Shown here one piece after another: positions 4,556 through 58,019 of a DNA stretch of 64,000 nt. The position numbers and the translations under genes were made by a program. The stretch comes from an uncultured Methanosarcinales archaeon (GTDB taxonomy: Archaea; Nanobdellota; Nanobdellia; Woesearchaeales; GW2011-AR15). Position 1 is the stretch's first letter, and each line of letters starts with the position of its first letter. Under the pieces are notes generated by a model. That model was not told the DNA's origin and ran no database searches. It saw nothing but the letters and a program-made list of their open reading frames with translations. Location: contig CAYRXW010000003.1 of NCBI GenBank assembly GCA_964428335.1, positions 150,368 through 214,367 on the forward strand, in the 5' to 3' direction.

Positions 4556-4565
4556 AAAAGCCCAG

Positions 4566-37429: not shown

Positions 37430-38899
37430 CTACTTCATTCCACTGTCTCCATAACCCGAAAGTTCTCCAGGCTTAAGACAATATTTTGCCAATTGTTCAT
37501 ATGCACCAGGGACACAGAAGGCAGCATCTTTTACCATCTGCTCAGTGCATCCTGTCCTGGTAAGCATTAGGTCTGCAGCATCCTGTGCCAGCATTTTTCC
37601 TTTTTCCATTACAAATCCATAATATGTGCTTCCTGAATAATATTCAGGACCCCATTCTTTCAATGCTGTTGCATCAGATGGACAGCCATTATTATTTTGC
37701 TGTATATTATGTGCTATTTCATGCCTAAATAGCTTATTTTTTTCTTCATTGGAAATACTGTTTACAACACCTGTGCAATACACAGCAGCTGGAGAGCACA
37801 TATTAGATGCACCAACCCAGCAATATGCTCCTTTTGGAACACAATCAGGAACAACAGCTAAATCATATGTCCCACCCATCTCATTTTTTATCTGATAGAA
37901 TATTTTTTCAACGTCTCCATTTACCATCTCATAACCAATTTCAGGAGCAGTAGAACCTACTAATCCTCCTGAAGTGGAAAACTCACTTGAGTCTGAAGGA
38001 ATTGCCTCATTTAATCCCTGATGCACATCTTCTGTTGAAAGCATTGGAACTCCGGAAGGCAAAGGGGCTTCTTTTATAAGTCCGTAATTAGTTGAATAGT
38101 GAACATCTGCAGTAATATAGCCATCTTCCACAGAAGTATCAGAAAAATAATACCATTTTTCTGAAAATGGATTCTGCCATGCCAGCCTTATTTTTTCAAT
38201 GCCTAAAGAATCATGATAAATATTATCTACATACAGCTTTATCTGGATAGGATTCTCTGAAAAATATCCGATAGGGTAAATCCCATACACAAGATTCCCT
38301 TCAAGTCCCTCTCCGTTTACTTCCCTTTTATCAGACACTTTTATATAAATCTCTTTTGCAGGCTTTCCTTTTATATCTTTTAACTCAATTTCATCGCCAG
38401 ATTCAATAATCATATTTTTATCTTCTGAAAATACAGCATTTTCTAAGACCTCCTCAGGCTTAAACCTTGTAATCTTCTCAAAAGTCTGAGTATACCCCTG
38501 GAAAGTATAATCAAAACTTTTGTATTTAATTGAAACAGGATAATCAATTTTTACAATTGCATTAACTTCATTAATGTCAAGAGTGACAATTGCTCCTGCA
38601 TCCTTTACACTCATTCCTTTTTCCTTTAATTTTTCTAAGTACTCAAATGAACACTCTCTTATCTTCAGGGAAACATAATCCTGATATTCTTCTTTTATAG
38701 TTTCATGGATCCCAATCCTTGTGTTTGCGTCAAGGACAATAATCCTGCTGCATTCAGAGAAATATGATTCAAATTCCTTAACATCCAAAGACACGTCAAT
38801 ATCATTATCTTTTATTATTTTTTTCGGAAGCATTATGAATAAAACAAGCAGCAGGACAATACCAATTATTATGGAAATCGTTGCCTGGGACTTTTTCAT
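37430..38899 (-). CDS. Membrane-anchored secreted protein with HExxH zinc-metallopeptidase motif
   Basis: N-terminal signal anchor. KLFRHEIAHNIQQNN near the C-terminal third. Family not assignable by eye. Confidence 0.45.
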   Translation of the reverse strand: MKKSQATISIIIGIVLLLVLFIMLPKKIIKDNDIDVSLDVKEFESYFSECSRIIVLDANTRIGIHETIKEEYQDYVSLKIRECSFEYLEKLKEKGMSVKDAGAIVTLDINEVNAIVKIDYPVSIKYKSFDYTFQGYTQTFEKITRFKPEEVLENAVFSEDKNMIIESGDEIELKDIKGKPAKEIYIKVSDKREVNGEGLEGNLVYGIYPIGYFSENPIQIKLYVDNIYHDSLGIEKIRLAWQNPFSEKWYYFSDTSVEDGYITADVHYSTNYGLIKEAPLPSGVPMLSTEDVHQGLNEAIPSDSSEFSTSGGLVGSTAPEIGYEMVNGDVEKIFYQIKNEMGGTYDLAVVPDCVPKGAYCWVGASNMCSPAAVYCTGVVNSISNEEKNKLFRHEIAHNIQQNNNGCPSDATALKEWGPEYYSGSTYYGFVMEKGKMLAQDAADLMLTRTGCTEQMVKDAAFCVPGAYEQLAKYCLKPGELSGYGDSGMK

Positions 38900-39043: not shown

Positions 39044-40354
39044 TTACGGTGCTTTTCTAAGCATCGTTCTAGGGAAAGGAATTGCATCCTTGATATTCTC
39101 AAACCCGCAAATCCACCTTACAACCCTTTCAACCCCAAGACCATAGCCTGAATGAGGGACTGAGCCATATTTTCTCAGGTCAAGATACCAGTCATAATGC
39201 TCAGGTTTCTCACCTTGTAGTTTCAGGTATTTCTGTAGCTCTTTGATATCTGTATCCCTTTCACTTCCTCCTATTATCTCGCCATAGCCTTCAGGTGCAA
39301 GCATGTCAAAGCATAATGCAACATCATCATTCGCTTCACTTGGCTTTGGAAGCTTTCTTTTCTTATAGAATGCCATTATCTCTTTTGGGTATTCAGTCAC
39401 AACAATAGGCGTATCAAATAATTCCATGACCGTTTCTTCTTCTATAGTCCGTAAGTCTTTTCCCCATTCAACTTCCATCCCTTTCTTTTCTTTCAATAGC
39501 CTTAGAACTTCTGTATAAGTGACAGTAGGGATTTCTTTTTCAGCAGTTGCCTTTAATTTTGAAATATCCCTCTCAAGGATCTTCAGTTCCTTTTCATTGT
39601 TCTCAAGAACTTTTTTCACAATGAATTTTATCTCGTCTTTTGCAACCTGGGTGCACTCGTCAAGATGCATCCATGCAGATTCCATTTCAGCCATCCAGAA
39701 TTCTGCGAGGTGCCTTGAAGTCTTTGATTTTTCAGATCTGAATGTAGGACTCATGTTATAGATTTTTTCTAATGCGAAAACTCCTGCTTCAGCATAAAGC
39801 TGCCAGGACTGTGAAAGATAAACAGTATCCTCAAAAAACTTCACAGAAAATAATGTCGAACCTCCTTCGCAGGCATTAGGCTGGAAGATAGGTGCTTCAA
39901 ACTCATAATATCCTTTATTCCTGAAAAACTCGTGAATTGCGCCTGTAATAGTGCTCCTTATCTTAAGCATTGCAACCATCTTCCTGCTCCTAATCCATAA
40001 GTGTCTGTTATCCAGTAGATACTCAGTTGAGAAATCCTTAGTTATTGGGAAAGGTTCAGAGGAATGCACTATTTTAAGGTCATGAACATCAACCTCAAAT
40101 CCTGTAGGTGCCCTTTCATCCTTTTTTATAGTTCCTGAAAGCTCTAATGATGATTCCATCCCTAATTTTGATGCTGCTTCAAAAATCTCCTTTTTATCTT
40201 CCTTCACAACGCACTGTATTATGTCTGAACTGTCCCTAATGACAATAAAAACAAACTTATTGCTCATCCTTATCCTATAGACCCAGCCTCTTATAGAGAC
40301 TTCGCCTGAGCCTTTTTGCATTGCATCTGAAATTGAGATAAATTTTTGTTCCAT
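39044..40354 (-). CDS. asnS: Asparaginyl-tRNA synthetase (class IIb)
   Basis: N-terminal OB anticodon-binding domain. Motif 2 region TFRSEKSKTSRHLAEFWMAEME (compare E. coli AsnRS RHLAEFWM). Motif 3 GSERDTD... GLGVERVV. AspRS cannot be fully excluded. Confidence 0.75.
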   Translation of the reverse strand: MEQKFISISDAMQKGSGEVSIRGWVYRIRMSNKFVFIVIRDSSDIIQCVVKEDKKEIFEAASKLGMESSLELSGTIKKDERAPTGFEVDVHDLKIVHSSEPFPITKDFSTEYLLDNRHLWIRSRKMVAMLKIRSTITGAIHEFFRNKGYYEFEAPIFQPNACEGGSTLFSVKFFEDTVYLSQSWQLYAEAGVFALEKIYNMSPTFRSEKSKTSRHLAEFWMAEMESAWMHLDECTQVAKDEIKFIVKKVLENNEKELKILERDISKLKATAEKEIPTVTYTEVLRLLKEKKGMEVEWGKDLRTIEEETVMELFDTPIVVTEYPKEIMAFYKKRKLPKPSEANDDVALCFDMLAPEGYGEIIGGSERDTDIKELQKYLKLQGEKPEHYDWYLDLRKYGSVPHSGYGLGVERVVRWICGFENIKDAIPFPRTMLRKAP

Positions 40355-40421
40355 ACCTTACAGGATAAATTATGATTTTATAAAATTGGCGAAATATATA
40401 TATAACCCGCATCCATAATCC

Positions 40422-40931
40422 TTGAATATGAAAAAGAGGGGACAGTTTTCAGTAGAATATATTATGATAATCACAATCTCCCTTCTTATACTTTTACCTG
40501 GAATCTATATTTTCAGAAACTATGCATTTGAATCAAATGACAGGTTGATGGAAACCAGGCTAGATGAGGTTGCAAATTCAATACTTTTGAGGGCAAAAAA
40601 AATGCATTACTTTGGCCCGCCATCCAAATCAGTTGTTGAAGTGGAGATGCCTTCCGGTATAAGCAGCATGTATGTCTATAATGAAGGGACAGAGTATTTT
40701 TTGGGTTTTTTAGTTCTCACTTCTTCAGGAGAGAAAGAATTTCTTTTTGATTCTGATATACCCATACGTGTGGATTCCCCAGTAGCCTGCAAAAACCCAT
40801 GCAGTTCCTGCTCGTGTTTCCCTGAAAATGCGTATGGTGAAGGGCTAAAAAACATCAAAGTTGAATCAGCAAAAGACACCATGTTTTATGTCAGGATAAA
40901 AGAGGATTCAGAGGCAGTTGCAAATGGCTAA
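40422..40931 (+). CDS. Archaeal type IV pilin-like protein (class III signal peptide)
   Basis: MNMKKRGQFSVEYIMIITISLLILLPGIYIF matches the KRGQ-x-S-x-EY class III signal peptide consensus. Confidence 0.6.
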   Translation: MNMKKRGQFSVEYIMIITISLLILLPGIYIFRNYAFESNDRLMETRLDEVANSILLRAKKMHYFGPPSKSVVEVEMPSGISSMYVYNEGTEYFLGFLVLTSSGEKEFLFDSDIPIRVDSPVACKNPCSSCSCFPENAYGEGLKNIKVESAKDTMFYVRIKEDSEAVANG

Positions 40932-41409
40932 GGCCCAGATAATCAGCATGGATTTCATCATGGCTTTCATAATCTTCATGGGGGCGATATCTATTTTTTT
41001 TTATTCATACCAAAGCAATATCAGGTCTTCAAACTTTAAAATAGATCCGAAAGCAACTTTCTCTAAGCTTACAAACATGGAGAATTCTTTTCTTTCAGGA
41101 GCAAAACTTGTCAATTTTGATGAATACATAACAGAATATGAGCCGTTAACACTTCATGAAATATTAAAAGGCACAGAGAATGCAAACTACTGCATCTATC
41201 TTCAGAATGGCACGAAAATACTGAGAAATTTTGAAGCTGTTGATAGTGACAATAATATTTTTTTTGGAGCGAAAAAATGCGGGGAAGTCAGGTTTACACC
41301 AACTTTAGAAGAGCCTATATGCAGGGGAAAAGAGGCAATCATTATCACAAAACCAGTTGTTTTTAACGGTGGGATAATGTCTCTGAATGTGCTTGCATGT
41401 GAAAAATGA
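40918..41409 (+). CDS. Pilin-like protein
   Basis: MQMAKAQIISMDFIMAFIIFMGAISIFF has a short leader and an acidic residue early in a hydrophobic helix. Overlaps the upstream gene. Confidence 0.45.
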   Translation: MQMAKAQIISMDFIMAFIIFMGAISIFFYSYQSNIRSSNFKIDPKATFSKLTNMENSFLSGAKLVNFDEYITEYEPLTLHEILKGTENANYCIYLQNGTKILRNFEAVDSDNNIFFGAKKCGEVRFTPTLEEPICRGKEAIIITKPVVFNGGIMSLNVLACEK

Positions 41410-41921
41410 AAAAAGGATATTTTTTCTTAATTGATGGGATATTTGCAATAGTCATACTTGTAATAGGCTTTTTGCTTGTATCAACAGAAAAGCCATATAA
41501 AGAGCAGACAATGCCAGTAGAATTCTCAGCGGACAATTTCATAGACATATTATCAACAGTCAAGCTTAGTGACATCTGTGAAAATTCAGTGTGCACAAAC
41601 AAGAAAATAGAACAATATATTGGACAGACAAATAATCGTGAACAGACTATTATTGATTTTCTCGGGGAGTTATATTCAGCAGGGAAAAAAAATGAAGCAA
41701 AGATCATTTTCACAAACTTAACATACATAGTCAGAAACGACATATATGGTGTTTCCCTCTCCATAAATAATGAAGAACTCTATTCCGACGCCGGAAAAAT
41801 CCAAAGCAGAGAATTAATAGCATCCAAAAAGATGGTTTTTGGCTTTGCAGAAAACCAGGCAAATGGGAAAGTAAGATACTGGGGACCATATCTTGCAGAG
41901 GTCATGATATGGGAAAAATGA
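41406..41921 (+). CDS. Pilin-like protein
   Basis: MKKG/YFFLIDGIFAIVILVIGFLLV. ATGA overlap with the upstream gene. Confidence 0.5.
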   Translation: MKKGYFFLIDGIFAIVILVIGFLLVSTEKPYKEQTMPVEFSADNFIDILSTVKLSDICENSVCTNKKIEQYIGQTNNREQTIIDFLGELYSAGKKNEAKIIFTNLTYIVRNDIYGVSLSINNEELYSDAGKIQSRELIASKKMVFGFAENQANGKVRYWGPYLAEVMIWEK

Positions 41922-42727
41922 TCCTTTCAAACAATGGGAAATTAAGAAAAAGAGCAATCTTCTTTTCCATAATGAGCATGTTCATCATTATCCTATTTGT
42001 TTCACTCTCTACGATATTATCAAAATTCAGGGTTGAGGAAACAGAACTTGACATAACAAGGGATAGGGTCAGCGTATTAAATTCGGTTGTAAGCGACATG
42101 GAAGAGGTTTATTTTGAAAAAATGGTATATGTGGCTGCAAAAAACTCTTTAATAGGGCTTTCAAAATACTATCACGAAAACCAATACGGAAGCAGGGTAA
42201 AGAGGACCGCAGAGGCAAATATGAGAACGCTTCTTTATGAAGGGATATTGGTTGAGCCAAACGGTGAAAAAATCAACCTTACAGTGCTTAGATTTAATGA
42301 TGACAACCAGCCTTATATCAACAGAAGCTATACAATAAAAGGGCTGAAGGAAGGGGTTGTTTTAATGTTTAATGACCTTGGTGTAAATGTGAACGAGTTC
42401 TCCATAAACATCTCAACAGGAAATATGGACCAGATTGACCCATGGACAATGCAGATAAAAGCAGACATCTACTATGATTTTGAAGATAAGACAAAAATTG
42501 TATCATGGTCAGGATTTACTGAAAAAACAGTAAAAGTGCCAATATATGGGATGTATTCATATGATCTTCAGAATGGAAAAGGAAACTTTGAAATCATTAC
42601 AAGAAACTGGAAAGAAGACAAATTCACAAAGACAGAGCCATCTGTACTTTCAAAATTGAGCAATTACAATAATCCAAAGCAAAACGGGATATGTTCGCCA
42701 AGCGCAACATGTGATGCAAATGTCTAA
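41909..42727 (+). CDS. Membrane-anchored hypothetical protein of pilin operon
   Basis: N-terminal TM AIFFSIMSMFIIILFVSLSTIL. Overlapping starts and stops with neighbours. Confidence 0.4.
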   Translation: MGKMILSNNGKLRKRAIFFSIMSMFIIILFVSLSTILSKFRVEETELDITRDRVSVLNSVVSDMEEVYFEKMVYVAAKNSLIGLSKYYHENQYGSRVKRTAEANMRTLLYEGILVEPNGEKINLTVLRFNDDNQPYINRSYTIKGLKEGVVLMFNDLGVNVNEFSINISTGNMDQIDPWTMQIKADIYYDFEDKTKIVSWSGFTEKTVKVPIYGMYSYDLQNGKGNFEIITRNWKEDKFTKTEPSVLSKLSNYNNPKQNGICSPSATCDANV

Positions 42728-43613
42728 GTCACAGGTTTCCTTTGAATTTATAATGATCTTTGTACTTGTGCTTTTTGCATTATCAGGGTTTATCTATATA
42801 ATAAACCAGAGAATTTTTGAACTAAGCAAAAAACAGGAAAATCTTGTTTTAGTGCATCTTTCAAACAGCATAATAAACGAGGCAATAATAGCATCAAGCG
42901 CCAACAACAATTATGTAAGGAAGTTTGATATCCCGCAAAAATTGTTCGGAAAAGATTATAGGATGAGCATTGAAAACTCAGAGCTTTCTATAGTTGTACT
43001 GGAGAATAACCAGACCTATCTAGAGCATCTGGCAGTTTTTCCAATCCCTGTAAAAGGTAGCTTCATACAGCAGATAACAGAGAACACGACAGAGCACTGC
43101 GTCTCAAGAAGCACAGACGGCATAAGATTTTCAAGGACACAGGCAAGCATCGACCCGAATGTCACAAATCCAGGACTAGGAGATGTATTTGACGTTTTCA
43201 TAAGCCTTCACTGCGTGACAGATGTCGCTAGCGCAAGATTCACGATAAAATATGATCCAGAAGCGCTTGAGCTTATGGATATGGAAGCAGTTCCAGTGAT
43301 ATTTCAAAAACAGGAATTTCGGAAAAAAAATCCTCTGTTCGAAAACGTCCTTACTGAATTTCCTATAAATGATCCGGAACTAATAAATGAAGATATTGCA
43401 AGATTCACGTTTGGCTACATCGGGACAACATGCGAATCAGGTTCAGGAAACTTTGCTAGGATGAAATTCAGGGCATTAAAGGCAGGGGAAACAGAGATAA
43501 AATTTGATGAGGATGTAAACGAATACATAAACATCCTTGACTGCAACACTAATCCAACAACAGAATTCGCACTGCCTGATTCAAGGAACAATGCCAGGAT
43601 TGTTATAGAGTAG
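42711..43613 (+). CDS. Pilin-like (class III signal peptide) protein with C-terminal cohesin-like domain
   Basis: N-terminus MSKSQVSFEFIMIFVLVLFAL (SQ-x-S-x-EF). C-terminal ~140 aa (nt ~43160-43580) carry ARFTIKYDPEALELMDMEAVPVIF and GNFARMKFRALKAGETEIKF, which align with cohesin blocks (a.F.h.YDP..L.v ... G.fA.i.Fkv...G). Confidence 0.5.
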   Translation: MMQMSKSQVSFEFIMIFVLVLFALSGFIYIINQRIFELSKKQENLVLVHLSNSIINEAIIASSANNNYVRKFDIPQKLFGKDYRMSIENSELSIVVLENNQTYLEHLAVFPIPVKGSFIQQITENTTEHCVSRSTDGIRFSRTQASIDPNVTNPGLGDVFDVFISLHCVTDVASARFTIKYDPEALELMDMEAVPVIFQKQEFRKKNPLFENVLTEFPINDPELINEDIARFTFGYIGTTCESGSGNFARMKFRALKAGETEIKFDEDVNEYINILDCNTNPTTEFALPDSRNNARIVIE

Positions 43614-43668
43614 AAAAGTTTATATAGCAGTAAACCGGTAAGAAAACCAAGGAAAAGAGGGGTTTTTA

Positions 43669-44151
43669 ATGAAAAAAGCACTAATCTTAATGGTAACACT
43701 TATAATATTTCTAAGCGCATGCACAATAAAAAAAGAAGAAAATGGATGTTTTGCTTTGTCTGGGGAAGATAGGGCAAAATGTTTTTCTGCTCAAGCTGCA
43801 GAAACTTTAAATATAGAATTTTGTGAAAACCTCCAAGAACAGGAGCTAAAAAAAGAATGCATTGAAGGGAGCATTAATGCAAGATTATCTCCAGAGGATT
43901 GTTCAATGCTTGATGAAACAGGCGACGTTGATTTTTGTGTGTACACAGTAGCGAAGAAAACAAAGGATATGGGTGTCTGTGAAAAAATAAGTGCCCTGAT
44001 TACGAAGGACAGTTGTTATCTTGATATGGTTAGTATCTATGGATTAGATGCATGCAAAAGCATTACAGGTTCTGGCTTAAAGGAACTATGTGAAAAAACT
44101 GCTAACAAAGAAGAAAATATTAACCTTGATGGTGTAAACGTTGTCAATTAA
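43669..44151 (+). CDS. Cys-rich lipoprotein-like protein
   Basis: Signal peptide with lipobox-like LSAC. Repeated C-x(n)-C modules. Confidence 0.45.
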   Translation: MKKALILMVTLIIFLSACTIKKEENGCFALSGEDRAKCFSAQAAETLNIEFCENLQEQELKKECIEGSINARLSPEDCSMLDETGDVDFCVYTVAKKTKDMGVCEKISALITKDSCYLDMVSIYGLDACKSITGSGLKELCEKTANKEENINLDGVNVVN

Positions 44152-47100
44152 AATGAAAAACAACCTAAAGCGAACTTTATTTGTTTTTTTCGGATTAATT
44201 TTATTAACTTTTTTTGCAAAATTAACTCTTGCTATTTGTTGGGGTGTTGAGTGTCCACCAGGCAGTCCAGGATGTAAAGATGACTGGTGCGATGATTTGT
44301 ATGATGCTGAATGTGTTGCATGTGATGATCCTGCAGAAGAGAATCAAGATCCACCTTGCGAACCTTCATGTGGTTCCAATGAATGCGGTGGAAACGGTTG
44401 CGGGGGATCATGTGGATCGTGTGATGCTGAACCATACACAACAGGTTGTACAAACGGAGCATGTATGTTCCAGCCAGCAACTCTAACAGCAAGTTCAAAC
44501 ACACCTTGCATAGATGAGACTGCAGCATCAAAAAAAATAATAGTAACTGGGACAAGCGGATACTGCGGGGATGTTTCTATAAAATTGCCATGGAATGCAA
44601 ACTTAGTACCTGTTGAAACAACAAAAACTTTCGAGACTTATAATTTTCAAAAAGAAATAACAATACCAGACGATGTTGCTTTAGCAAACACTCCTTTTGT
44701 AGTTGAAGTATGGGGGAACAGGGAAGCAAAGGACTCATCAAAAGATGAAGTTGATTATGTGCCTGTGTGTTATAAGGAGATTCTTGTTGAACTTAACTAC
44801 CTTAATTTTTTCTATTGCCCAGATTCTGAAAATTTGCAGATAGCAGCAGATGGCAGGTTTGATTACTACAATGAAACAGCACAATATATTTTTGATTCAT
44901 TTACTTATGTGAAATGGGATGAATGCGTAAGCAGCTTAACAGTCACAGCATGCTCCCCAAACCCAACAGACTGCGTTGATAATTCAGGAACTTCAAAAAG
45001 CCAGAACAGCGTTTTCAACGGTGATACTGATTCAGAGACAGAGGTCTGCTGGTCAAAAGAAGGCATACAGGGTGCCTGGACAGATGCTGATATCAGCCCT
45101 AATGTATGTGCAAAAATAACAGGGGCAGACTGGTATGACTGCAATCCTTCAGCAGAATGTGATAATGGTGTTGATGATGTAACTGGTACAAACAACCTGG
45201 ACATTGACGGACTTTGCTGTGGCGATGACAACAGTGAAAACAACCTTCAGACAAAGGTCAAATATGCAGGAAATACGGCTTTTATTCCAAACATTAATTA
45301 CAATGCATGTTGCGATGATGGGTTTACCTGTGCAACAGAATACGGAAGCTGCATAAGAAGCGGAGATACTTATTGTTTAGAAATAGAAAACTACAGGGCT
45401 ACATGCAAGGCTGAAGGTCATATAGAAATCAGCCAGGATACAAGATGCAAGTCAGACTGTCAAATATGCAACATAAATGATGAAGAACAGTCTTTTGGGG
45501 TAATAGATGATATTGATCTAAATGCAATAAATTCTTTTATTGAGAATTCACCAGGAGATTATGATCCTTTGTATGACACTAACAGGGATAATAATGTAAA
45601 TGAAGATGACATATTGTTCTGCAGGTCAATGTATGGTGAAGCATGTGTTACATGCTTAAGATTAGCTGAAGAAGGAAGAGATGTGTGCGCAGAAACAGAT
45701 GACGGAATCGTGTTTGGGCAAAACAAGCCTTTCAGATGCTCACCAAACGAAAACAATTTCACTGTTGAATTAAGAAATGATGATTACTGCGGTGAAGTCT
45801 GCGACTATACTTTTGAGAAAGCAGCATGCGATGTAAACAAGTGCGGTGGCTGCGCAGTAGATAGTGACTGTGGTTCTGACCAGTATTGTGATGTATCAAG
45901 ATGCTCATGCGAGCCAAGGATGTGCAATGACGATATATGTTCAGACTTTGACTGTAGTGTCTGTGGAGGAACAGGAGACTGTGGAACATGCCCTCCACCA
46001 TGCACTAAAACAGAAAACAATGAATATACCTTGGATGACAACAAAGATAATGATTGTGATGGTTTGGTTGATGAACCAATCTTCGAAGAAGAAGGGACGT
46101 ATATTTGGGAATCTTCCTGTAACTATTATGTATGTGAATTTACAGATTCAGTAAAAAAGAAGAAAGCAGAAGTCACTTTGAAAGGAAGTGTTAGTGCAGC
46201 TACAAAAGTTTTGAGTGAACTTGATGATGTAGTAGCAAGAACAGCAATAAAGACTTCTTTTGTTTCTCATTTAAACAATTCAGATAATATAGACTGCATG
46301 CTTTTCAAATCAGGAGAAGTACTTGAATATTTTGTAAACTTTTCAGGCAGTACAAATACAGCACAGATATTTTTAGGAGACACATTAAGAAACCCAATAT
46401 CAAATCCTTTCAGTTATGCTTCACCTTCCTGTGCACTAGGTTGTTCATCACCTGGAAATTGCCAGAGGCTGAGCTGTGATCCTGCAGAATGCCTGTTTGA
46501 TTGCGGAGGATATTTTGTTGACACTTCAACAGATTATTGTGCAGCATGCCAGGAATCTACTGTATGCTCAAATTATACAGACAGATATTCATGCTATTAT
46601 GATCCATGTTCAGGGGCAATGACAAACAAAGGATGCTCTTGGAATGAGACCAACAAGCAATGCTCAGACTCTTTTAACTATTGCCCTCCAGGCACTGCTC
46701 TTTGCACAGATGGAAGCTGCAGCGTTAATTGCAAAGACAGCGAGTTTCAGGGATGTGTCCAGAGTGTTATAGACTATTCAAAAATAAAAGACAAGGCAGG
46801 AACAAATAACGGAAAAGTTGTCGGTTCTGAGATATACGAAGATGGAAGGATCAACGAAGGCTTTGAATTTGATGGAAATGATTTCATCAGTGTTCCAGAT
46901 AAAGCCATATTTGACCTTGATTATTTCACAATATCTTTTTATGTCAACCCTTCAGATGTAGATATAAAAAACGAATATGTAAGTAAAAGACTATCATGCG
47001 GAAACAGCAACTATTTTGACATATGGGGGAATGACAGCATATATCTTGAGGTGAACAAAGGCTCAAGGGCATATGTTGTAAAGACTTCCAGAGTGAAGGA

Positions 47101-48796
47101 AAATTCATGGGATTTTGTAACATTTGTAAAAGAAGGAGATAAAATCAAGGCGTACACAAATGGCAGATTATCATCTGAAGTTTCACTAAATGAGAACTTC
47201 AAGATAATTAATGATGCAAACATAACAATAGGTTCAAGCCCATGTGTAGGCCAGAATGGGATGTATAGATTAAAGGGAATAATGGATGATTTCAGAATAT
47301 ACAAAACAGCCCTTTCAGCAACAGAGGTAAGCAGGCTTTACAATAAAACCTACTCAAACACACAAGTTCCAATACTTCATTACACATTTGATTATGACAG
47401 TTTCGATAGCACTGTTGTAGGTTCTGAAGGAGATGAAAACGGCATCTGTGAGGTTGGTGAAGGGTGCGCATGTGATGATTGCCTAAATAAAAGAGACAGC
47501 TGTACAGCAGGTGCACTTTGTTCAGAGGAAGGATTATGCGGATGTCCAATTGGCACAACCTTATGTAAGGATATGACTTGCAGTAGCGATTGCTCAAAAA
47601 ATCAGGGGATGAAAGCATGTGTTGGGCTTCCAAACGGAAGATGCGAATTATATGAAGGATGTGACTGTGTTGACTGTAAAGGAAGACAGGACAGCTGCAT
47701 GTCAGGGCTTTTATGCGTTGATGATTTTTGTGGAAAACCAGGAAAGCCAGAATGCAAAGTTGGAGAAGCGCTGTGTAAGGATTTGACTTGTGATAAAACT
47801 TGCGAGTTACATGGCGGAAAAATGGGCTGCGATGGACAGGCAAACGGAGTTTGTGAATACCTTGAAGGCTGTGCATGCCCTGATTGCGATGGTAAAAGAG
47901 ACAGCTGCACGGAACTTGGCGTGTGCGAAATTGATAATATGCTTTGTGTATCAAAAGCTCCTGGTGGAACCATATATGAGGAATGTGTTGATACAGATTT
48001 GGACGGTTATTATAAGATAAGTTCACTATGCGAAGGCAGCAATGATTGTAACGACAACGACCCAGAAGTCAATCCAGGCGCAATAGAAATCAAAGGAAAC
48101 CAGAAAGATGATGATTGCGATCTTGAAGTAGATGAGGATTCCTACCAAGGCATAACTATTGAAAGCCTGACAAAAAGGGTGGAACCATTTACAAAGCTCA
48201 CTTTGAATGTCAATGTAGAGAATGAACTTGAAAACGAACTTCAGAATGCCAGGATATCTCTAGCAGGCCCAGGCGGAATCAGGATAATAGAATCAAGCAA
48301 GAGCGTGTCAGTCCCTGCAAAAAGTTCAGAGACAATCACATTTGAACTGTTTATCAAAGATTACAATGAGGATTATGCGGATTTAACCATGGACTTTGTG
48401 TTTGGAGAACTTAGCAAATCCCAGGTATTATCCTTGGATATCGATTCTCCAAATTTCCTTATAGCTGCAGATCCAGAGGACCTTGATGAAAACAAGGAAT
48501 GTGTGGATATATATTATATGTCAAAAGGCAGCGGAAATGCAGATATTGAAATGAATATAATAGATCCAAATGCATTCAGCCAGACTGTCATAGTTGATTA
48601 CATCTCTTCAGCAAGATTGGGAGAAACAGCAGAAATGCTTTCAAATCCATATTGCCTGCCAAATGATAAGGATTATTTAATAAAAGGATACTTATATAAG
48701 TCAGTTCCAGGCAGATTTGTAGATGTGGCTGATTCAAGCGAAAGAGACATGAATCCGGTTGAGGATAGCATGGTTGTAAGTATCAAGGTGAGGTAA
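44141..48796 (+). CDS. Giant secreted Cys-rich surface protein with dockerin-like Ca-binding module, LamG/ConA-like domain and MopE-type DNDCDG motifs
   Basis: Signal peptide. YDTNRDNNVNEDDILF (D-x-N-x-D-x-x-V-N-x-x-D, dockerin/EF-hand-like; nt ~45494-45640). LamG hallmark GIMDDFRIYKTALSATEVSRLYN (nt ~47280-47345). DNDCDGLVDE and DDDCDLEVDE MopE-like motifs. Confidence 0.6.
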   Translation: MSIKMKNNLKRTLFVFFGLILLTFFAKLTLAICWGVECPPGSPGCKDDWCDDLYDAECVACDDPAEENQDPPCEPSCGSNECGGNGCGGSCGSCDAEPYTTGCTNGACMFQPATLTASSNTPCIDETAASKKIIVTGTSGYCGDVSIKLPWNANLVPVETTKTFETYNFQKEITIPDDVALANTPFVVEVWGNREAKDSSKDEVDYVPVCYKEILVELNYLNFFYCPDSENLQIAADGRFDYYNETAQYIFDSFTYVKWDECVSSLTVTACSPNPTDCVDNSGTSKSQNSVFNGDTDSETEVCWSKEGIQGAWTDADISPNVCAKITGADWYDCNPSAECDNGVDDVTGTNNLDIDGLCCGDDNSENNLQTKVKYAGNTAFIPNINYNACCDDGFTCATEYGSCIRSGDTYCLEIENYRATCKAEGHIEISQDTRCKSDCQICNINDEEQSFGVIDDIDLNAINSFIENSPGDYDPLYDTNRDNNVNEDDILFCRSMYGEACVTCLRLAEEGRDVCAETDDGIVFGQNKPFRCSPNENNFTVELRNDDYCGEVCDYTFEKAACDVNKCGGCAVDSDCGSDQYCDVSRCSCEPRMCNDDICSDFDCSVCGGTGDCGTCPPPCTKTENNEYTLDDNKDNDCDGLVDEPIFEEEGTYIWESSCNYYVCEFTDSVKKKKAEVTLKGSVSAATKVLSELDDVVARTAIKTSFVSHLNNSDNIDCMLFKSGEVLEYFVNFSGSTNTAQIFLGDTLRNPISNPFSYASPSCALGCSSPGNCQRLSCDPAECLFDCGGYFVDTSTDYCAACQESTVCSNYTDRYSCYYDPCSGAMTNKGCSWNETNKQCSDSFNYCPPGTALCTDGSCSVNCKDSEFQGCVQSVIDYSKIKDKAGTNNGKVVGSEIYEDGRINEGFEFDGNDFISVPDKAIFDLDYFTISFYVNPSDVDIKNEYVSKRLSCGNSNYFDIWGNDSIYLEVNKGSRAYVVKTSRVKENSWDFVTFVKEGDKIKAYTNGRLSSEVSLNENFKIINDANITIGSSPCVGQNGMYRLKGIMDDFRIYKTALSATEVSRLYNKTYSNTQVPILHYTFDYDSFDSTVVGSEGDENGICEVGEGCACDDCLNKRDSCTAGALCSEEGLCGCPIGTTLCKDMTCSSDCSKNQGMKACVGLPNGRCELYEGCDCVDCKGRQDSCMSGLLCVDDFCGKPGKPECKVGEALCKDLTCDKTCELHGGKMGCDGQANGVCEYLEGCACPDCDGKRDSCTELGVCEIDNMLCVSKAPGGTIYEECVDTDLDGYYKISSLCEGSNDCNDNDPEVNPGAIEIKGNQKDDDCDLEVDEDSYQGITIESLTKRVEPFTKLTLNVNVENELENELQNARISLAGPGGIRIIESSKSVSVPAKSSETITFELFIKDYNEDYADLTMDFVFGELSKSQVLSLDIDSPNFLIAADPEDLDENKECVDIYYMSKGSGNADIEMNIIDPNAFSQTVIVDYISSARLGETAEMLSNPYCLPNDKDYLIKGYLYKSVPGRFVDVADSSERDMNPVEDSMVVSIKVR

Positions 48797-49831
48797 ATGA
48801 TAATATTTGGTGTCAATCTTCCATTAGCAGAGATTTTTTTTATATTGGTTATGCTATTCTTGGTTTTTTTAGTGATGATTATTCTGCAGCTTCAGAAGCT
48901 TCAGAAAATGACAGAAGATGAAAAGAAAGACCTTGAAGAGCTGGAAAGAATAGCACAGGATGAGAAAAAAGACCTTGAAGATATTAAAGCATTTGAACAG
49001 AGGGAGTCTCAGGATATATCCAAATTTGAGAAAGACATAATGGATTTGGAAGAAGATACAGACACACTTTACCTGAAAAAACTTGCTCCTGACCTATATA
49101 AAATTCAGAATTATACACTTTGGGCACTTAAAAAAGGCATGGATCCAAAGCAGATCAAGGAAACTTTAATCAGCAAGGGATGGAAAGACAAAAAACTAGT
49201 TGAGATGATTGTTGAAGACACATTAAAATATTCAGGATATTATTCCGGAAGAAAAGGAGATGTGCAGATACCGGATATAAAGATTGAAGAAGAGAAAAAA
49301 GTGATTGAAAAACCTATAAATATAGTTAAGGTTGTCCAGCCTGAAGCTCAAAAAGAAGAGAAAAAGGAAACAACTACCAAGGTTCTTCTTTTAAAAGAGC
49401 CAAAAGAAGAGAAGCCAATTGCACAAAAGAAGAGTGTAAAACCAAAAAAACTGAAATTAAAGCCAGTTAAGAAGGAAATTAAACCTGTTAAGCTTAAAAA
49501 AGCAGTTACAGCAAAACTTCCTGAAGATAGCTTTGGTGCAATAGAAAAAGAGCTGACAAAGCTTGAAAAAGACTTGAAGTCAAAGGAAAAGAAAACAGAA
49601 GAGAAAAAAACAAGTCCAAAGAAGCAGGATAAAAAGCCGGAAGCTAAAAAAGCACAAGTGAAAAAGCCTGAAACTAAAAAAGTAGCAACTGTTCCAAAAA
49701 AAGAGCAGAAAGCTTCAAAATCGAGCAGCTCAAAGAAAGCTCCAGATAAAAAATCTGGGAAAAAAGGAAAAGAGGATACAGTCCATATTGAAGCTAAAAA
49801 AGGAACAGAGGTAAAGGTTACTTATAAATAA
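48797..49831 (+). CDS. Membrane protein with coiled-coil region and lysine-rich (histone-H1-like) C-terminal tail
   Basis: N-terminal TM. EDEKKDLEELERIAQDEKKDLEDIK repeats. KKPEAKKAQVKKPETKK tail. Contains the recurrent GxxxxQIKxxLxxxGW motif described in the findings. Confidence 0.5.
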   Translation: MIIFGVNLPLAEIFFILVMLFLVFLVMIILQLQKLQKMTEDEKKDLEELERIAQDEKKDLEDIKAFEQRESQDISKFEKDIMDLEEDTDTLYLKKLAPDLYKIQNYTLWALKKGMDPKQIKETLISKGWKDKKLVEMIVEDTLKYSGYYSGRKGDVQIPDIKIEEEKKVIEKPINIVKVVQPEAQKEEKKETTTKVLLLKEPKEEKPIAQKKSVKPKKLKLKPVKKEIKPVKLKKAVTAKLPEDSFGAIEKELTKLEKDLKSKEKKTEEKKTSPKKQDKKPEAKKAQVKKPETKKVATVPKKEQKASKSSSSKKAPDKKSGKKGKEDTVHIEAKKGTEVKVTYK

Positions 49832-49853
49832 TGTTTAAGGAGGACAGGATAGT

Positions 49854-49863
49854 TTTATAAATA
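49854..49863 (+). promoter_or_regulatory. TATA-box-like element (tttataaata) ~27-36 nt upstream of aIF5A start
   Basis: AT-rich octamer at the canonical archaeal promoter distance for a short or leaderless transcript. Confidence 0.3.
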
Positions 49864-49889
49864 CCTATAAAATCCAAAAGGTAGTAAAA

Positions 49890-50288
49890 ATGGCAGGAAC
49901 AAAACAAGTAAGCGTAAGTAGTCTGAAGAAAGGAAGTTATGTCTGCATTGAAGATGCAGCATGCATCGTCAAGGATATCCAGGTATCAAGGCCTGGAAAA
50001 CATGGACATGCAAAGATTAGGGTCAGTGCTACAGGAATTATGGACGGCAGAAGAAGAGAGACAGTCATGCCAGGACACGATAACATCGACGTTCCTATAA
50101 TTGACAAGCTTAATGCGCAGGTGCTTTCTGTTTCCGGAGACACTGCAAATTTGATGGACATGGAATCATATGTCACATTTGATCTGAAAATACCTGAGGA
50201 ATTAAAGGACACAGTAAAAGATGGAGCTACAATAGTCTACTGGGATATTTTGGGAGAAAAAGTAATGAAACAGTTAAAAGGAGAGTAA
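49890..50288 (+). CDS. eif5a: Translation initiation factor 5A (aIF5A)
   Basis: Hypusination loop SRPGKHGHAKIRV. 132 aa. Confidence 0.9.
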   Translation: MAGTKQVSVSSLKKGSYVCIEDAACIVKDIQVSRPGKHGHAKIRVSATGIMDGRRRETVMPGHDNIDVPIIDKLNAQVLSVSGDTANLMDMESYVTFDLKIPEELKDTVKDGATIVYWDILGEKVMKQLKGE

Positions 50289-53527: not shown

Positions 53528-54451
53528 ATGAAAATCATCCTTCAATTATCAAAAGAAAACCTAAGCCTAGCAATAGACGAAGCAATAGCATTAACAAAAA
53601 AAAAATATGCGCTATACGAGAATTTTCTTATAACTTCATACCTTAAAAACATGGAAAAAAGGCTTGGCTTTTCACATAACCTATATGAATTCCTATTTGC
53701 GTGCAAGCGTGTTGAACTAGACCAAAAAATAGGCCTTTTTGACTGGCAGAGAAAATATGCTACTAATTTTTCAGCAAGGGCACATGGTCTTGATGAAAAA
53801 GAGATAGCTAAAAAAGTATTCAAGAAGCTTAAGAATCCTACAGTTAAGCTTAGGAATTCAGATTCAGAATTTCATTTTTTCCTTATAGATGATAATGTAA
53901 TATGCGGAAAATTCCTCTATGAAGTAGATAAAACCCACCTAAAGCGAAAAGCTCACCTTAGGCCCAGCCTTCATCCAACTTCAATGAACCCGGCTTTGGC
54001 AAAAGCATGCATAAACCTTACAGGGCTAAAAAAAGGCAGCATATTGGATCCATTCTGCGGTTCAGGAGGCATACTCATTGAAGCAGCAATAATGGGATTT
54101 AATGCTATTGGGTATGATATAGATGAGATGCAAATCAAAAGGGCAGGAAAAAACCTTGAATATTACCAAGCAAAGGCGGAACTTCAGACTGTTGATGCAT
54201 TAACTTCTAAAGTAAAAGTAAATGCAATAGTTACAGATATTCCCTATGGAAAAAGCTCTAAAGCAGGGAATGTAAGCACTCTTGCAAATAAATTCTTAGC
54301 CCATGCAAAGAACCTTACAGACAATATGGTCATTATCTACCCGGATTTTATTAACCCAGATTTTTATGGGTGGAAAGTTGAAAAAGAATATTCAGTATAT
54401 ATCCACAAGTCTTTGACAAGAAAGATTGCTAAGCTTCATTCTGTTCATTAA
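53528..54451 (+). CDS. tRNA (guanine-N2)-methyltransferase, Trm11/Trm-G10 family (THUMP-associated class I MTase)
   Basis: SAM-binding motif I ILDPFCGSGGILIEAA. Motif IV DIPYG (DPPY-type). N-terminal region compatible with THUMP. Confidence 0.65.
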   Translation: MKIILQLSKENLSLAIDEAIALTKKKYALYENFLITSYLKNMEKRLGFSHNLYEFLFACKRVELDQKIGLFDWQRKYATNFSARAHGLDEKEIAKKVFKKLKNPTVKLRNSDSEFHFFLIDDNVICGKFLYEVDKTHLKRKAHLRPSLHPTSMNPALAKACINLTGLKKGSILDPFCGSGGILIEAAIMGFNAIGYDIDEMQIKRAGKNLEYYQAKAELQTVDALTSKVKVNAIVTDIPYGKSSKAGNVSTLANKFLAHAKNLTDNMVIIYPDFINPDFYGWKVEKEYSVYIHKSLTRKIAKLHSVH

Positions 54452-57400
54452 TCCTCTTTGCTCTTATTGTAATAAACACTGCAAAAATAGCTAGTACAAT
54501 GAAGCTTATTAAAATCGGCCTGAAGTAAGGTATTTCGCTTATCTTTATTGCCCATGCAAGCGGGCTGTCATTTTTTAGCTTGCTCTTGCTTACCAGGTTC
54601 TTGCAGCCCTGGATGACTGAGTCAATAATAATCTGTGCTTCTTCATAGTTCCCTTGTTCTGTATGCTCAAGGGCTTTTTTAAGATATTCATTAAGTTCCA
54701 TGCATTCGGGATTACTGCTAAGTAAATCTTTTGCAAAAGTTATTTTTGTCTGCGTTAATGTGTCATCTCCCTTGCTTTTTTCTAGTGCATTAATGTATAT
54801 CACAGCCTTATCCTTATAAAATGGAGAAGTAACATTTGCATAAATGGTTATCACATAATTATTATAAAGCCTGTAGTCTTTTACTATTAAATCAACTTTT
54901 TCTTCAGAATTTGGCTCAAGATTCGCTAAGAAAACATTGGAAAAAGTTATGTCTGCTGTTGATGAGTTTGTCAGGGCAGAAAGCTTTATTCCATGTAAAG
55001 TCTTATTTCCGCTGTTTAATATCACAATTTTTTGCCTTAATGTATTATTATTGTATATAACAGCTGGTTCAGGGTTTAATATGTCTAAAAATACTTCTTT
55101 TTCCACTTCAACCTGCTCAAATACAGGATATGGGACTGATTTTTTCCTGGTCCTTGTACTGGATGACTGAGGAGTATCAGATTCAGGAATTTCAGTAACA
55201 TTAATTGTGACGTTATTACTTATCTTTGTATCTGTTCCATCATCTGCTGTGAAAATAACAGTTTCAGAGCCAACTGCAAGAGGCGTAAATATGACATCAT
55301 TTCCATCATACTCAATGTCGACTTTTGTTGTTTCTGTATTTGTATATGTCAGTGTGTCATTATCTGGATCATTAAACCTGACATTTCCAGATCCACCAGT
55401 CAGATAATTTGTCCACCTGAATGCCTGTGTTATATTTGTGACGTTTGGAAGGCTACTATTTAGTAATGGAATTCTGTTCTTATTATGTATTGTTAGATAC
55501 CATGTAAAATTAATATCATGTGCCATAAGTCCAGATACATTATCATAAACAATTAAGACAACAGTATATGTCCCGTTTTCAGCAAATCCAAAATACCTTG
55601 AATAGTTTCTTGAGCTACTGACAATGCTTCCATCTAATGTCCAATTATATTCAAGCTGGTCTCCATCTGGGTCATATGTCTCATGCGCAAAATATATTGT
55701 AGTGTTTTCAGTTGTATTTGTATATGTATAATTTTCTCCAATTGAAGATACTAAAACAAAACTGGTATTTATTGGCCTGTCATAAGGTGTAATATTCTGA
55801 ATTATCGGAGCATATGTCCTATTGATTATTGTTATATTAAATAGCACAGAATCAGTAAGCCCATACAAGTCTCTTACTGTTACATTAATTCTATATTCTC
55901 CGTCTGCAGTAGAATTTGGTGTAAATGATATAATTCCATTTGCAGATATGTTGAAAAGAGCTGCTGAGCCAATAAACCTTGAAGTGAATGTCTTATTATC
56001 ATTTTCAAAACATGTGGTATCAGGGTCAGTAGTCTGGCTGCCGATATCAAGATAGTACAAATAGCTTTCAATTATTGTTGAATTTAGAACATTTGGAAGA
56101 ATAGGGGCATCAGCAGTATTTTGTATTTCAAGAGTAAATATGCTTGAATTCTCCCCGCCATTTGTATCGTTTATCCTTATGTATACTGAATAATTTCCAT
56201 CTATTGAGCAGTTTGGTGTGAAATTTATAAGGCCTGAACTTGATATTACAAAAAATGATGAATTATCTATAAATGTATCAAAAGCTCCATCTGGGTCTGT
56301 TGCATTTATCTTATATGTGAAAAGAGAGTCTTCATATGCAGTTTGATTTTGTGGAACTTGGTTAAAATAAGGTGGATAGTTTTGAAGTATAGTAATATTA
56401 AATATTTCAGTATCAGTTTTTCCACCATCATCTGTAACAGTGATTAGATAATAATAATTTCCAGTGAAACTTGAATTAGGCATGAACGTAACTGTTCCTG
56501 TAGATGAATTTATTGAAAGGTGCGGACAGTTAGCTAAACAATTACTTGAATTTGTAGCGTAGGACAATGATTCACTAAAATTCACCAAAGAATCCATGTC
56601 AGTTGCATTAATTCTGTATACAAACCTTATATCTGTATAAGCTGTAAGATTATTTATTTTCTTGTTATCTAGGTAGTTACCAGAATATAGGCTGTTTCTA
56701 TGTATTAAAGGATTATCATTCCTATTGCTTAAATTAAGATACACATTTTGACTAACTGTAACTTTTGTATCTGTTATATAAACTGTAAAATTAGCGCAAT
56801 ATATATGAGTATTATTTAAAGTTACATTGATTAAAGCTGTTGCATTTTCATTCCCATGCTCAATTGTTGTTAAGTTCCATATATTTAATCCACAATCTTC
56901 AGTTATGCTGAAATTTATCTGATCTGGATCTACATCGCTCGCATTAATCCTTAATGTAAACCTTTGGTTCTGCACACCTGATTTATTAGGAATTACCTCT
57001 ATTTCAGGAGCATGATTTATTGATATGACTTCCAAATTAAATGAATCAGAAACACAAAGAGCATTATCTTCAGGATCACAAGCAGTAATAGTAACAGTAT
57101 GATTTCCTTCATCAGTATAATTAGCTTTTCTGTTATCAAAAAACTGAATTGTAAAAATATACTCGTTAGCAGTTGTGTTTTCAATCCTTTCAGGATTATA
57201 TGATGAATTTACAGAAAACAAGAAAGGCCCTGTTGAATTTTCTTCATCACCAACAGTTATTATATATTGCAAAGTTTCGTTTTCTTCAACTGACTGGTTT
57301 GCAATTGATGTAATAAAATAAGGAACGTCATTTACAGGTGTTACATTAAACTCAATTGACATTCCAACAATATTTGTTCCGTCTCTGACTAGAAAATCAT

Positions 57401-58019
57401 ACTCATCATTAATGCTTAAATCAGGTTCGTCTTCAGGGGAACAGGTAACTATGCCTGAACCAGAATTTATCGTACAGTAATCATCCCCAGTTATAAAACT
57501 CTTTGAATAAATTAATGTATCAGAATCAGCATCTGTTGTTTGCAAGGTAAATGAATAATTATAGCCTTCTGTTAAAGTTTCATAGCTTCCAATATTTATG
57601 TTTGAAGAGTTCTTTAAAAAAGGAGTAGTTGGAGGGGAATTTTGGATAGTAATCCTACTGCTTTCAATATCAAATGTAAGGTCTGTTGAATTTTCTGCCC
57701 TTACAGTGCAATTCCACTTCTGGCCTTTCTTTGTGTAAGTATGCGAAAGCACATCAGGGCTTGTCGAATTAATTGTAGTCCTGAACAATACTGAATTATT
57801 ATACCATGAAACATTCACCTGAGTATGGCCTGATACTGTGAAATAACATGATAAATTGCTGGAAGTTGTTGCATTAACTGGTGAAATTGAGATACTGGAA
57901 AGATTTAATGAGTTTATGAATATGGAGAATAGTATTACAAGAATTCCGATGATTGCTATTTTTTTATATCTCATTTTAAATAAGGGCCAGACACGCTTGT
58001 TTTGGGGGTGCATATCCAT
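54429..58019 (-). CDS. Giant surface adhesin-like protein with tandem Ig/cadherin-like repeats, very high N-x-S/T sequon density and C-terminal TM anchor
   Basis: Likely true start at the internal Met MRYKKIAIIGILVILFSIF (nt 57974). Repeated ~100-aa modules with DADSD/DPDGD calcium-binding-like motifs. C-terminal TM ILISFIVLAIFAVFITI plus basic tail. Confidence 0.6.
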   Translation of the reverse strand: MDMHPQNKRVWPLFKMRYKKIAIIGILVILFSIFINSLNLSSISISPVNATTSSNLSCYFTVSGHTQVNVSWYNNSVLFRTTINSTSPDVLSHTYTKKGQKWNCTVRAENSTDLTFDIESSRITIQNSPPTTPFLKNSSNINIGSYETLTEGYNYSFTLQTTDADSDTLIYSKSFITGDDYCTINSGSGIVTCSPEDEPDLSINDEYDFLVRDGTNIVGMSIEFNVTPVNDVPYFITSIANQSVEENETLQYIITVGDEENSTGPFLFSVNSSYNPERIENTTANEYIFTIQFFDNRKANYTDEGNHTVTITACDPEDNALCVSDSFNLEVISINHAPEIEVIPNKSGVQNQRFTLRINASDVDPDQINFSITEDCGLNIWNLTTIEHGNENATALINVTLNNTHIYCANFTVYITDTKVTVSQNVYLNLSNRNDNPLIHRNSLYSGNYLDNKKINNLTAYTDIRFVYRINATDMDSLVNFSESLSYATNSSNCLANCPHLSINSSTGTVTFMPNSSFTGNYYYLITVTDDGGKTDTEIFNITILQNYPPYFNQVPQNQTAYEDSLFTYKINATDPDGAFDTFIDNSSFFVISSSGLINFTPNCSIDGNYSVYIRINDTNGGENSSIFTLEIQNTADAPILPNVLNSTIIESYLYYLDIGSQTTDPDTTCFENDNKTFTSRFIGSAALFNISANGIISFTPNSTADGEYRINVTVRDLYGLTDSVLFNITIINRTYAPIIQNITPYDRPINTSFVLVSSIGENYTYTNTTENTTIYFAHETYDPDGDQLEYNWTLDGSIVSSSRNYSRYFGFAENGTYTVVLIVYDNVSGLMAHDINFTWYLTIHNKNRIPLLNSSLPNVTNITQAFRWTNYLTGGSGNVRFNDPDNDTLTYTNTETTKVDIEYDGNDVIFTPLAVGSETVIFTADDGTDTKISNNVTINVTEIPESDTPQSSSTRTRKKSVPYPVFEQVEVEKEVFLDILNPEPAVIYNNNTLRQKIVILNSGNKTLHGIKLSALTNSSTADITFSNVFLANLEPNSEEKVDLIVKDYRLYNNYVITIYANVTSPFYKDKAVIYINALEKSKGDDTLTQTKITFAKDLLSSNPECMELNEYLKKALEHTEQGNYEEAQIIIDSVIQGCKNLVSKSKLKNDSPLAWAIKISEIPYFRPILISFIVLAIFAVFITIRAKRINEQNEA

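Follow-up and report, generated by a model that had tools for sequence, protein, structure and literature searches.

How might an archaeon keep on its surface a very large secreted protein that carries no anchor of its own? The question is raised by a block of eight genes, all on the plus strand, at positions 40422–49831 of a 64,000-nucleotide stretch of DNA from a Woesearchaeota-type (DPANN) archaeon (contig CAYRXW010000003.1; this whole stretch is called the window hereafter). The block opens with five overlapping pilin-like genes (genes 1–5), the last of which encodes a pilin module fused to a cohesin, and two genes further on stands a giant secreted protein of 1,551 amino acids with a dockerin inside it. 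On the sequence comparisons and predicted structures set out below, we consider it fairly probable that the block specifies parts of a type IV filament, or of a short pseudopilus, whose cohesin-bearing pilin docks the separately secreted, lectin-like adhesin.

Pilin, cohesin and dockerin modules

Gene 5 (42711..43613, plus strand; 300 amino acids) is bimodular. In an AlphaFold2 (AF2) model built from a 12-sequence alignment (predicted local distance difference test score (pLDDT) 81.3; predicted template modelling score (pTM) 0.70), a 53-residue N-terminal helix (residues 11–63) leads into a beta-sheet head (residues 69–149), after which a separate beta sandwich forms the C-terminus (residues 159–299); the predicted fold is the 'lollipop' expected of a type IV pilin, carrying an extra module. 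The model, the alignment and stand-alone homologues together delimit the pilin module to residues 1–152 (42711..43166, plus strand). This module exists by itself, given that a profile search for the family over 1.84 billion representative proteins returned hundreds of stand-alone proteins of 120–150 (typically around 130) amino acids with KxQ(V/I)SxEF N-termini that match the pilin part only (profile positions 3–100). Full-length pilin-plus-cohesin proteins amount to about 25–30 clusters at 50% identity (31 proteins, fragments included, at E <= 1e-30), and the family is small but real. Its members come from metagenome-assembled genomes of Candidatus Woesearchaeota/DPANN and from the complete genome of Archaeon GW2011_AR15, in which the orthologous protein is annotated as 'hypothetical protein'.

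The preliminary description of the window, made from the sequence alone, had proposed a cohesin for the C-terminal part of gene 5, and both profile and fold bear this out. Residues 153–300 together with the stop codon (43167..43613, plus strand) make up the module, of which residues 153–268 match Pfam Cohesin (PF00963) with an E of 3.4e-9 and a score of 37.5 bits (curated cut-off 24.1); the isolated domain matches at E 6.9e-10, and orthologous cohesins do likewise (for example, 1.7e-10 in locus L009 and 3.4e-10 in L012). When the cohesin model was compared with the PDB by Foldseek, only cohesins were found among the 50 matches listed, the best of them at E 5.9e-8 and with TM scores (normalised by the length of the target) reaching 0.70; 2xdh and 2vo8 were among the best. 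The predicted sandwich thus superposes on solved cohesins, and the beta-sandwich fold on which that description had made its proposal depend is the one obtained.

The giant protein (44141..48796, plus strand, with a likely start at ATG 44153) was characterised from its open reading frame, hydropathy and composition. It has a single hydrophobic segment, the N-terminal signal peptide, with no other membrane segment or anchor, and is rich in Cys (118 residues) and strongly acidic (267 acidic versus 119 basic residues). As a protein with a signal peptide and no second hydrophobic segment, it would need a partner to stay on the cell, and the combination of secretion, lack of an anchor and presence of a dockerin is the profile expected of cohesin cargo. 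A LamG (concanavalin A-like lectin) domain, also recognised in the preliminary description, occupies residues 911–1064 (46871..47332, plus strand) and matches Laminin_G_3 (PF13385) at E 3.7e-23 and 82.8 bits (cut-off 27.6); it is the sole Pfam family above its curated cut-off in the protein, and the Pfam scan reported no catalytic domain. Three Cys-rich repeats of about 50 amino acids each follow (residues 1101–1270), and weak Ig-like Pfam matches lie near residues 1352–1417. The two MopE-type, putatively metal-binding motifs suggested earlier are present as strings (DNDCDG and DDDCD, of the form DxDCD, at residues 636 and 1323), but the corresponding Pfam model (Cu-binding_MopE, PF11617) gives no match to the window protein at E <= 1, although it is matched by orthologues (L009, 8.4e-13; L010, 7e-10; precomputed matches in L001 and L004). 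Homologue searches with the N-terminal 700 and the C-terminal 217 residues were empty, not retrieving even the giant itself, and the orthologues were therefore drawn from syntenic loci (877–1874 amino acids in 14 loci).

The dockerin is an internal module of the giant, at residues 435–506 between conserved Cys residues (45443..45658, plus strand), and was delimited with orthologue profiles; YDTNRDNNVNEDDILF lies within it at residues 478–493. A whole-protein Pfam scan of the window giant reported no dockerin. All 11 aligned syntenic copies match Dockerin_1 (PF00404; best E 8.6e-8), the full-length L018 giant does so above the cut-off (24.3 bits), and the family profiles match solved dockerins over both repeats (2vn5_B, 4.8e-7; 4fl4_A, 3.7e-6), dockerins making up 16 of the 18 matches of these profiles to solved structures. 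Two-loop textbook dockerins stand at the same position in most of the syntenic giants, for example in L001 (CDINQDGVVNDIDITAI...YDVNLDGEVDDSDYIIC) and L010 (CDVNSDGRVDSEDITAI...YDINSDGYIDDADIELC), and a common Cys pattern (C-x3-C-x2-C ... C-x7-C-x2-C) surrounds the module across the syntenic giants. We regard the dockerin identity as settled at the level of the family because the syntenic giants carry the module at the same position in the same Cys frame.

Conserved linkage and the pilin set

Related loci were gathered by exact-protein look-ups, a scan of 185,579 species genomes and a metagenome scan. In the window itself there is a single cohesin and a single dockerin, which share a strand and are separated by about 1.8 kb. 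Of the roughly 19 loci that have enough flanking sequence, 14 have a dockerin giant no further than two genes 3′ of the cohesin-pilin (the window, L001, L003, L004, L005, L009 (that is, AR15), L010, L011, L013, L014, L015, L016, L018 and L023), among which the identity of gene 5 ranges from 28 to 70%. In one of these (L010, 10004–12184), the cohesin-pilin has itself acquired a LamG domain and four Cys repeats of the DUF4215 type, reaching 726 amino acids; the pairing of this pilin with a lectin is thus a recurring theme and points to the same function. Gene 2 is also variable in length, being enlarged to 516–543 amino acids in L017 (6833–8464) and L019 (6983–8533). In L001, a pair of NTP_transf_2/Polbeta nucleotidyltransferase genes (1025–1965, minus strand) lies between the cohesin-pilin and the adhesin genes, and the adhesin there is in two parts, a 502-amino-acid LamG protein and a 1,256-amino-acid dockerin protein.

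The four genes that precede gene 5, all on the plus strand, encode pilin-like proteins of 169 (gene 1, 40422..40931, MKKRG|QFSVEY with Glu at +5), 163 (gene 2, 40918..41409, KA|QIISMDF), 171 (gene 3, 41406..41921, MKKG|YFFLIDG) and 272 amino acids (gene 4, 41909..42727, RKRA|IFFSIMS, without an acidic residue at +5 or +6); the N-terminus of gene 5 reads SKS|QVSFEF. In all five, basic residues are followed by G, A or S and then by at least 20 (20–30) hydrophobic residues. The proteins belong to five distinct families, each of which is recognisable in eight syntenic loci by a distinct N-terminal signature and an unchanged place in the operon, so that the hallmarks of a class III signal (a short basic leader, a small residue at −1 and a hydrophobic stretch of about 20 residues) are found for the five genes across these eight loci. 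The five overlapping genes with class III signals described previously are thereby confirmed gene by gene, and their N-termini resemble class III signals rather than those of the general secretory (Sec) pathway cut by signal peptidase I, the outcome that had been named as an argument against the proposal. For gene 1, the KRG|QFSVEY start noted at the outset is accompanied by synteny and by matches to Class_IIIsignal (PF04021) in all eight orthologues (best E 6.4e-6); the window copies of the pilins themselves fall under the Pfam cut-off for this family (23.7 bits), gene 1 scoring E 0.0014 and 18.9 bits. A comparison of the gene 1 family profile with PDB sequences gave no meaningful match. Genes 1 and 5 both retain Gln at +1 and Glu at +5 among their relatives, the homologues of gene 5 having G, A or S at −1 and the motif [KR][GAS]|Q..(F/M)E; one of them (P0002) has a precomputed PF04021 match and was given a UPF0333 family name by the Joint Genome Institute (JGI).

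Are these proteins components of a filament? In L020, a distant locus whose gene 5 is 28% identical, orthologues of gene 2 (E 4.6e-23), gene 3 (4.8e-45) and gene 4 (1.3e-47) share a minus-strand cluster with the gene for a T2SSE ATPase (E 4.8e-36) and with two genes for T2SSF platform proteins; those of gene 1 (E 1.2e-37) and gene 5 stand beside it. Division of the platform over two genes is a hallmark of archaeal type IV filament (TFF) system 1, which is present in some DPANN (bioRxiv 10.64898/2026.04.22.720090). To judge from gene content, this linkage is the best available sign that the pilin-like proteins are filament components rather than mere membrane-anchored proteins. A prepilin peptidase was seen in none of the loci examined. 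Beside the machinery cluster of L020 (11319–14861, minus strand) is a gene for a 1,180-amino-acid subtilase (Peptidase_S8, E 1.3e-57) with FG-GAP repeats, the C-terminus of which contains a candidate dockerin-like loop (DVDDDGLITNYD); this protein is a possible alternative cargo for the cohesin-like pilin of that lineage.

Gene layout and neighbouring features

Every open reading frame of the preliminary description was recovered on the plus strand at the positions it gave, and the conserved block was found to run beyond the end of the giant (48796) to 49831. Genes 1–5 overlap one another by 14, 4, 13 and 17 nucleotides. The likely true starts are ATG 40428, 40924, 42714 and 44153, the TTG or GTG codons upstream of them in the open reading frame calls being unlikely starts. 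The G+C content of the window is about 36%. The block is flanked by housekeeping genes, that is, a class II, Asn/Asp-tRNA synthetase-like gene divergent from gene 1 (39044–40354, minus strand) and an aIF5A-like gene (49890–50288).

The intergenic region upstream of gene 1 (40355..40421) contains, as read from the sequence, the A/T-rich, TATA-like boxes TTTATAAAA and ATATATATATAA on the plus strand and is a putative promoter. Boxes of the TTTATA(T/A)A type occur in every intergenic gap of the block, including 43614–43668 and 49832–49889, and, given this recurrence, the giant gene and the lipoprotein-like gene before it may be under a promoter of their own, separate from that of the five pilin genes. 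This smaller gene (43669..44151, plus strand), separated from gene 5 by a 55-nucleotide gap, encodes a Cys-rich protein of 160 amino acids with a lipoprotein-like signal (MKKALILMVTLIIFLSAC; weak NCBIfam lipoprotein-signal matches, E ~0.006) and is kept in some syntenic loci only, occupying the same position in L004 and in one JGI contig. Directly after the giant, the last conserved gene (48797..49831, plus strand) encodes 344 amino acids comprising a membrane helix at the N-terminus, an acidic stretch resembling a coiled coil, a domain of some 55 amino acids that is nearly invariant (YLKKLAPDLYKxQNYTLWALKKG...GWKD...DTLKY) and a Lys-rich tail. It likewise stands directly after the giant in L001, L009, L010, L011, L013 and L014 and is retained in L012 despite the missing giant there; its family profile gave only noise against Pfam and the PDB, with no relative found.

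A second, unrelated cluster, made up of short genes that overlap one another and encode class III-like N-termini, lies on the plus strand at 3371–10174 (3371–3670, KKGMELEYVV; 3639–4115; 4112–4555, NKRGELEVELIFF; 4491–5045; 5038–5460, MGRGFFLLSYYD; 5457–6602) and ends in a gene for a 1,193-amino-acid secreted protein that has both a NAGPA phosphodiester glycosidase domain (E 1e-25) and a GDSL/SGNH hydrolase domain (E 2.8e-13). No cohesin or dockerin was found in this cluster, nor any paralogy by blastp to the operon at 40–49 kb; it may be a further pilin-like set, paired with a hydrolytic giant. On the minus strand, 37430–38899 encodes a 489-amino-acid protein with a class III-like N-terminus (MKKSQATISIIIGIVLLLVLF) and an HExxH-like string (FRHEIAHNIQ) toward its C-terminus but no Pfam match, and 54429–58019 encodes a 1,196-amino-acid surface protein with Ig-like repeats (Big_9, E 2.4e-20; PKD; He_PIG), another candidate adhesin.

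A proposed docking model and its alternatives

We suggest that 40422–49831 encodes the subunits and the cargo of a surface structure of the type IV filament class. The checks that the preliminary description had set as possible refutations went, wherever they could be run, in favour of its proposal. What the sequences and predicted structures establish is the identity of the domains, their architecture, the conserved linkage and, in one lineage, the tie of the pilin families to an ATPase and platform; cleavage, polymerisation, tip position, cohesin–dockerin binding and the ligand are inferred. A prepilin peptidase would presumably process the five class III proteins, and an ATPase and platform whose genes would lie outside the block would assemble them. 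Gene 5 would join the filament through its pilin module, most probably at the tip or close to it and in company with the other low-copy pilins, leaving the cohesin exposed. The giant, exported by Sec and folding with many disulfides, would dock through its internal dockerin on this cohesin in a non-covalent, Ca-dependent manner, and its LamG domain and Cys-rich repeats may then recognise a glycan or a protein, either on a host cell or on some other surface. More tentatively, and at slightly less than even odds, such a cohesin–dockerin plug and socket would load the giant on the filament tip as the physical host-attachment device of the small-genome Woesearchaeota, and the dockerin giants could be exchanged between lineages to alter host or substrate specificity.

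Several observations weigh against this proposal. As had been reported for the window, filament machinery is missing from it: phmmer found no T2SSE or T2SSF homologue (best E >= 0.13), a crude regular-expression search found neither a T2SSE-type Walker A nor an A24-peptidase motif, and in most related loci there is no ATPase, platform or peptidase within 10 kb. The residue at −1 in the window copy of gene 5 is Ser, not Gly or Ala. Five loci (L008, which is rearranged, L012, L017, L019 and L020) have a cohesin-pilin without an adjoining giant. The dockerin with a canonical calcium loop that was first read from this sequence is upheld, though it is faint in the window copy: the assignment is clear for the family, and loop 2 of the window copy (DTNRDNNVNEDD) is canonical, but the excised segment matches Dockerin_1, its sole match, only below threshold (E 0.008–0.015, 16–17 bits; cut-off 22.9), and loop 1 (NINDEEQSFGVIDDID) is degenerate with a 4-residue insert. 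The same holds for loop 1 of L004, whereas both Ca loops are canonical in 8 of the 9 remaining aligned orthologues (for example, CDINQDGVVNDID...YDVNLDGEVDDSD). The window dockerin may thus have one intact Ca site only and a single binding mode, and the sub-threshold score and the insert make the strength and mode of binding uncertain; a single-sequence AF2 model of residues 425–515 (pLDDT 45) has no interpretable fold. The distance matrices of cohesin and dockerin correlate (r 0.64, Mantel p 2e-4), which shows a pair apparently co-inherited without partner swapping, yet shared ancestry alone would give the same correlation, and for this reason we have downgraded it as evidence of co-evolution.

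The missing machinery would fit a membrane-tethered scaffold, in which the N-terminal helices are kept as signal anchors, or a very short, pseudopilus- or bindosome-like assembly, the cohesin simply tethering the giant to the cell envelope. Departures from the strictest class III consensus (the Ser in gene 5, and Phe or Tyr following the cleavage position of genes 1, 3 and 4) point the same way, and the bindosome of Sulfolobus is a precedent for archaeal class III proteins that are displayed for binding and do not form fibres (bioRxiv 10.64898/2026.04.22.720090). However, five conserved pilin families in a fixed order resemble a set of pilins and minor pilins, the Gln at +1 and Glu at +5 have been kept in genes 1 and 5, gene 5 has the predicted lollipop fold of a pilin, and in L020 these families are linked with a T2SSE ATPase and with a T2SSF platform in two parts. 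We regard a scaffold of this kind as rather unlikely, although it is the alternative that we take most seriously.

Docking on a filament could also be right in its parts and wrong in its pairing. If the cohesin served other dockerin proteins (for example, proteases), or the dockerin another cohesin, the adjacency of the two would merely reflect an island of surface-protein genes. The five loci without an adjoining giant are compatible with this, as are the subtilase/FG-GAP protein with its C-terminal dockerin-like loop, the nearest candidate in L020, and the giant of L015 with at least two dockerins. Against it stand the adjacency in 14 of about 19 loci across deep divergence, the single cohesin and single dockerin of the window, and the behaviour of the closest pair of loci, the window and L004, which have the loop-1 insert in common and also the closest cohesins; mispairing seems improbable to us. 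Lower still is our estimate for a type II secretion-like piston, in which the five pilin-like proteins would export the giant while the cohesin received it only in passing. Type II secretion systems typically have five pseudopilins, and the giant is conserved immediately 3′ of the pilin genes; but the giant has an ordinary N-terminal signal peptide, a second export step is superfluous in a single-membrane archaeon, none of the loci showed a secretin-like or other secretion component, and to our knowledge all known cohesin–dockerin pairs are stable docking modules, so that such a piston appears highly improbable.

The docking model has counterparts in known systems for each of its halves. Like the modular type IV pilins (for example, the vWA-bearing PilB and lectin-bearing PilC of Streptococcus sanguinis; PMC8179133), gene 5 has a C-terminal module placed on a small pilin for display, and the lectin family PF13385 is among the modules most commonly grafted on pilins (Raynaud et al. 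2021, PMC8179133), as in the L010 version of gene 5, which carries LamG itself. In the window, however, the grafted module is not an adhesin but a cohesin adaptor that would recruit a separate protein, and the case is archaeal, with a class III/UPF0333-type N-terminus, whereas the 2021 survey covered only the bacterial IPR012902 motif; the word 'cohesin' does not occur in its text or in the supplements examined (PMC8179133). With PilY1/PilC of type IVa pili, the block shares a very large non-pilin adhesin encoded beside four or five low-abundance pilins and, in the model, adhesin display through a small, specific contact with one minor pilin. PilC/PilY1 binds PilK by beta-strand augmentation through a 12-residue C-terminal plug and has a C-terminal beta-propeller (bioRxiv 10.64898/2026.09.18.752573), whereas the link here is a predicted cohesin–dockerin contact through an internal dockerin; as the Pfam scan found no C-terminal beta-propeller domain in the giant, we rejected membership of that family and see an analogous logic without homology.

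Cohesins and dockerins outside cellulosomes (for example, in Archaeoglobus fulgidus, 2xdh, the toxin complexes of Clostridium perfringens, 2vo8, 2w1n and 2jnk/2ozn, and adhesins of anaerobic methanotrophic archaea (ANME) and sulfate-reducing bacteria (SRB), PMC10553843) likewise occur singly, in non-cellulolytic extracellular proteins, and have been proposed to form surface or cell–cell adhesion complexes. Unlike gene 5, none of the named non-cellulosomal cohesins is fused to a type IV pilin, and the dockerin here is internal, held between Cys clusters of the giant rather than C-terminal in an enzyme. The 'cellulosome-style docking' of the preliminary description survives as docking chemistry: both module families, and presumably Ca-dependent docking, are shared with the clostridial cellulosome. 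The latter is built of a many-cohesin scaffoldin and glycoside hydrolases, whereas the carrier here is a pilin, with no carbohydrate-active enzyme and no scaffoldin bearing a carbohydrate-binding module (CBM); with a single cohesin, a single dockerin and no enzyme module in 64 kb, a cellulosome was rejected. The Epd-like archaeal TFF system 1 (bioRxiv 10.64898/2026.04.22.720090; PMC4858521) resembles the block and its relatives in its QxSxEF-type class III N-termini, multiple pilins and large adhesin-like proteins, and in a two-gene platform beside the ATPase as in L020, but most of the loci described here have their pilin genes away from the ATPase and platform. Neither of the archaeal TFF surveys (bioRxiv 10.64898/2026.04.22.720090; Makarova et al. 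2016, PMC4858521) mentions cohesin or dockerin, and we found no paper that ties either module to archaeal pilins or to DPANN/Woesearchaeota. Taken with the above, this suggests that the combination of a modular pilin with a non-cellulosomal cohesin–dockerin pair is apparently previously undescribed.

Little is understood of the means by which DPANN archaea attach to their hosts, and the locus offers a concrete, two-module hypothesis for this attachment, one that applies also to the public complete genome of GW2011_AR15. For large adhesins that are not pilins, the mode of attachment to a type IV filament has been solved only lately, and for one bacterial family. If the docking model is true, cohesin–dockerin biology would be extended from enzyme scaffolds to pili, the cohesin would join the repertoire of pilin-grafted modules, and a third way of functionalising pili would be added, independent of modular pilins and of the PilY1 beta-strand plug. 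The pairing would also provide a marker for attachment genes in uncultured archaea.

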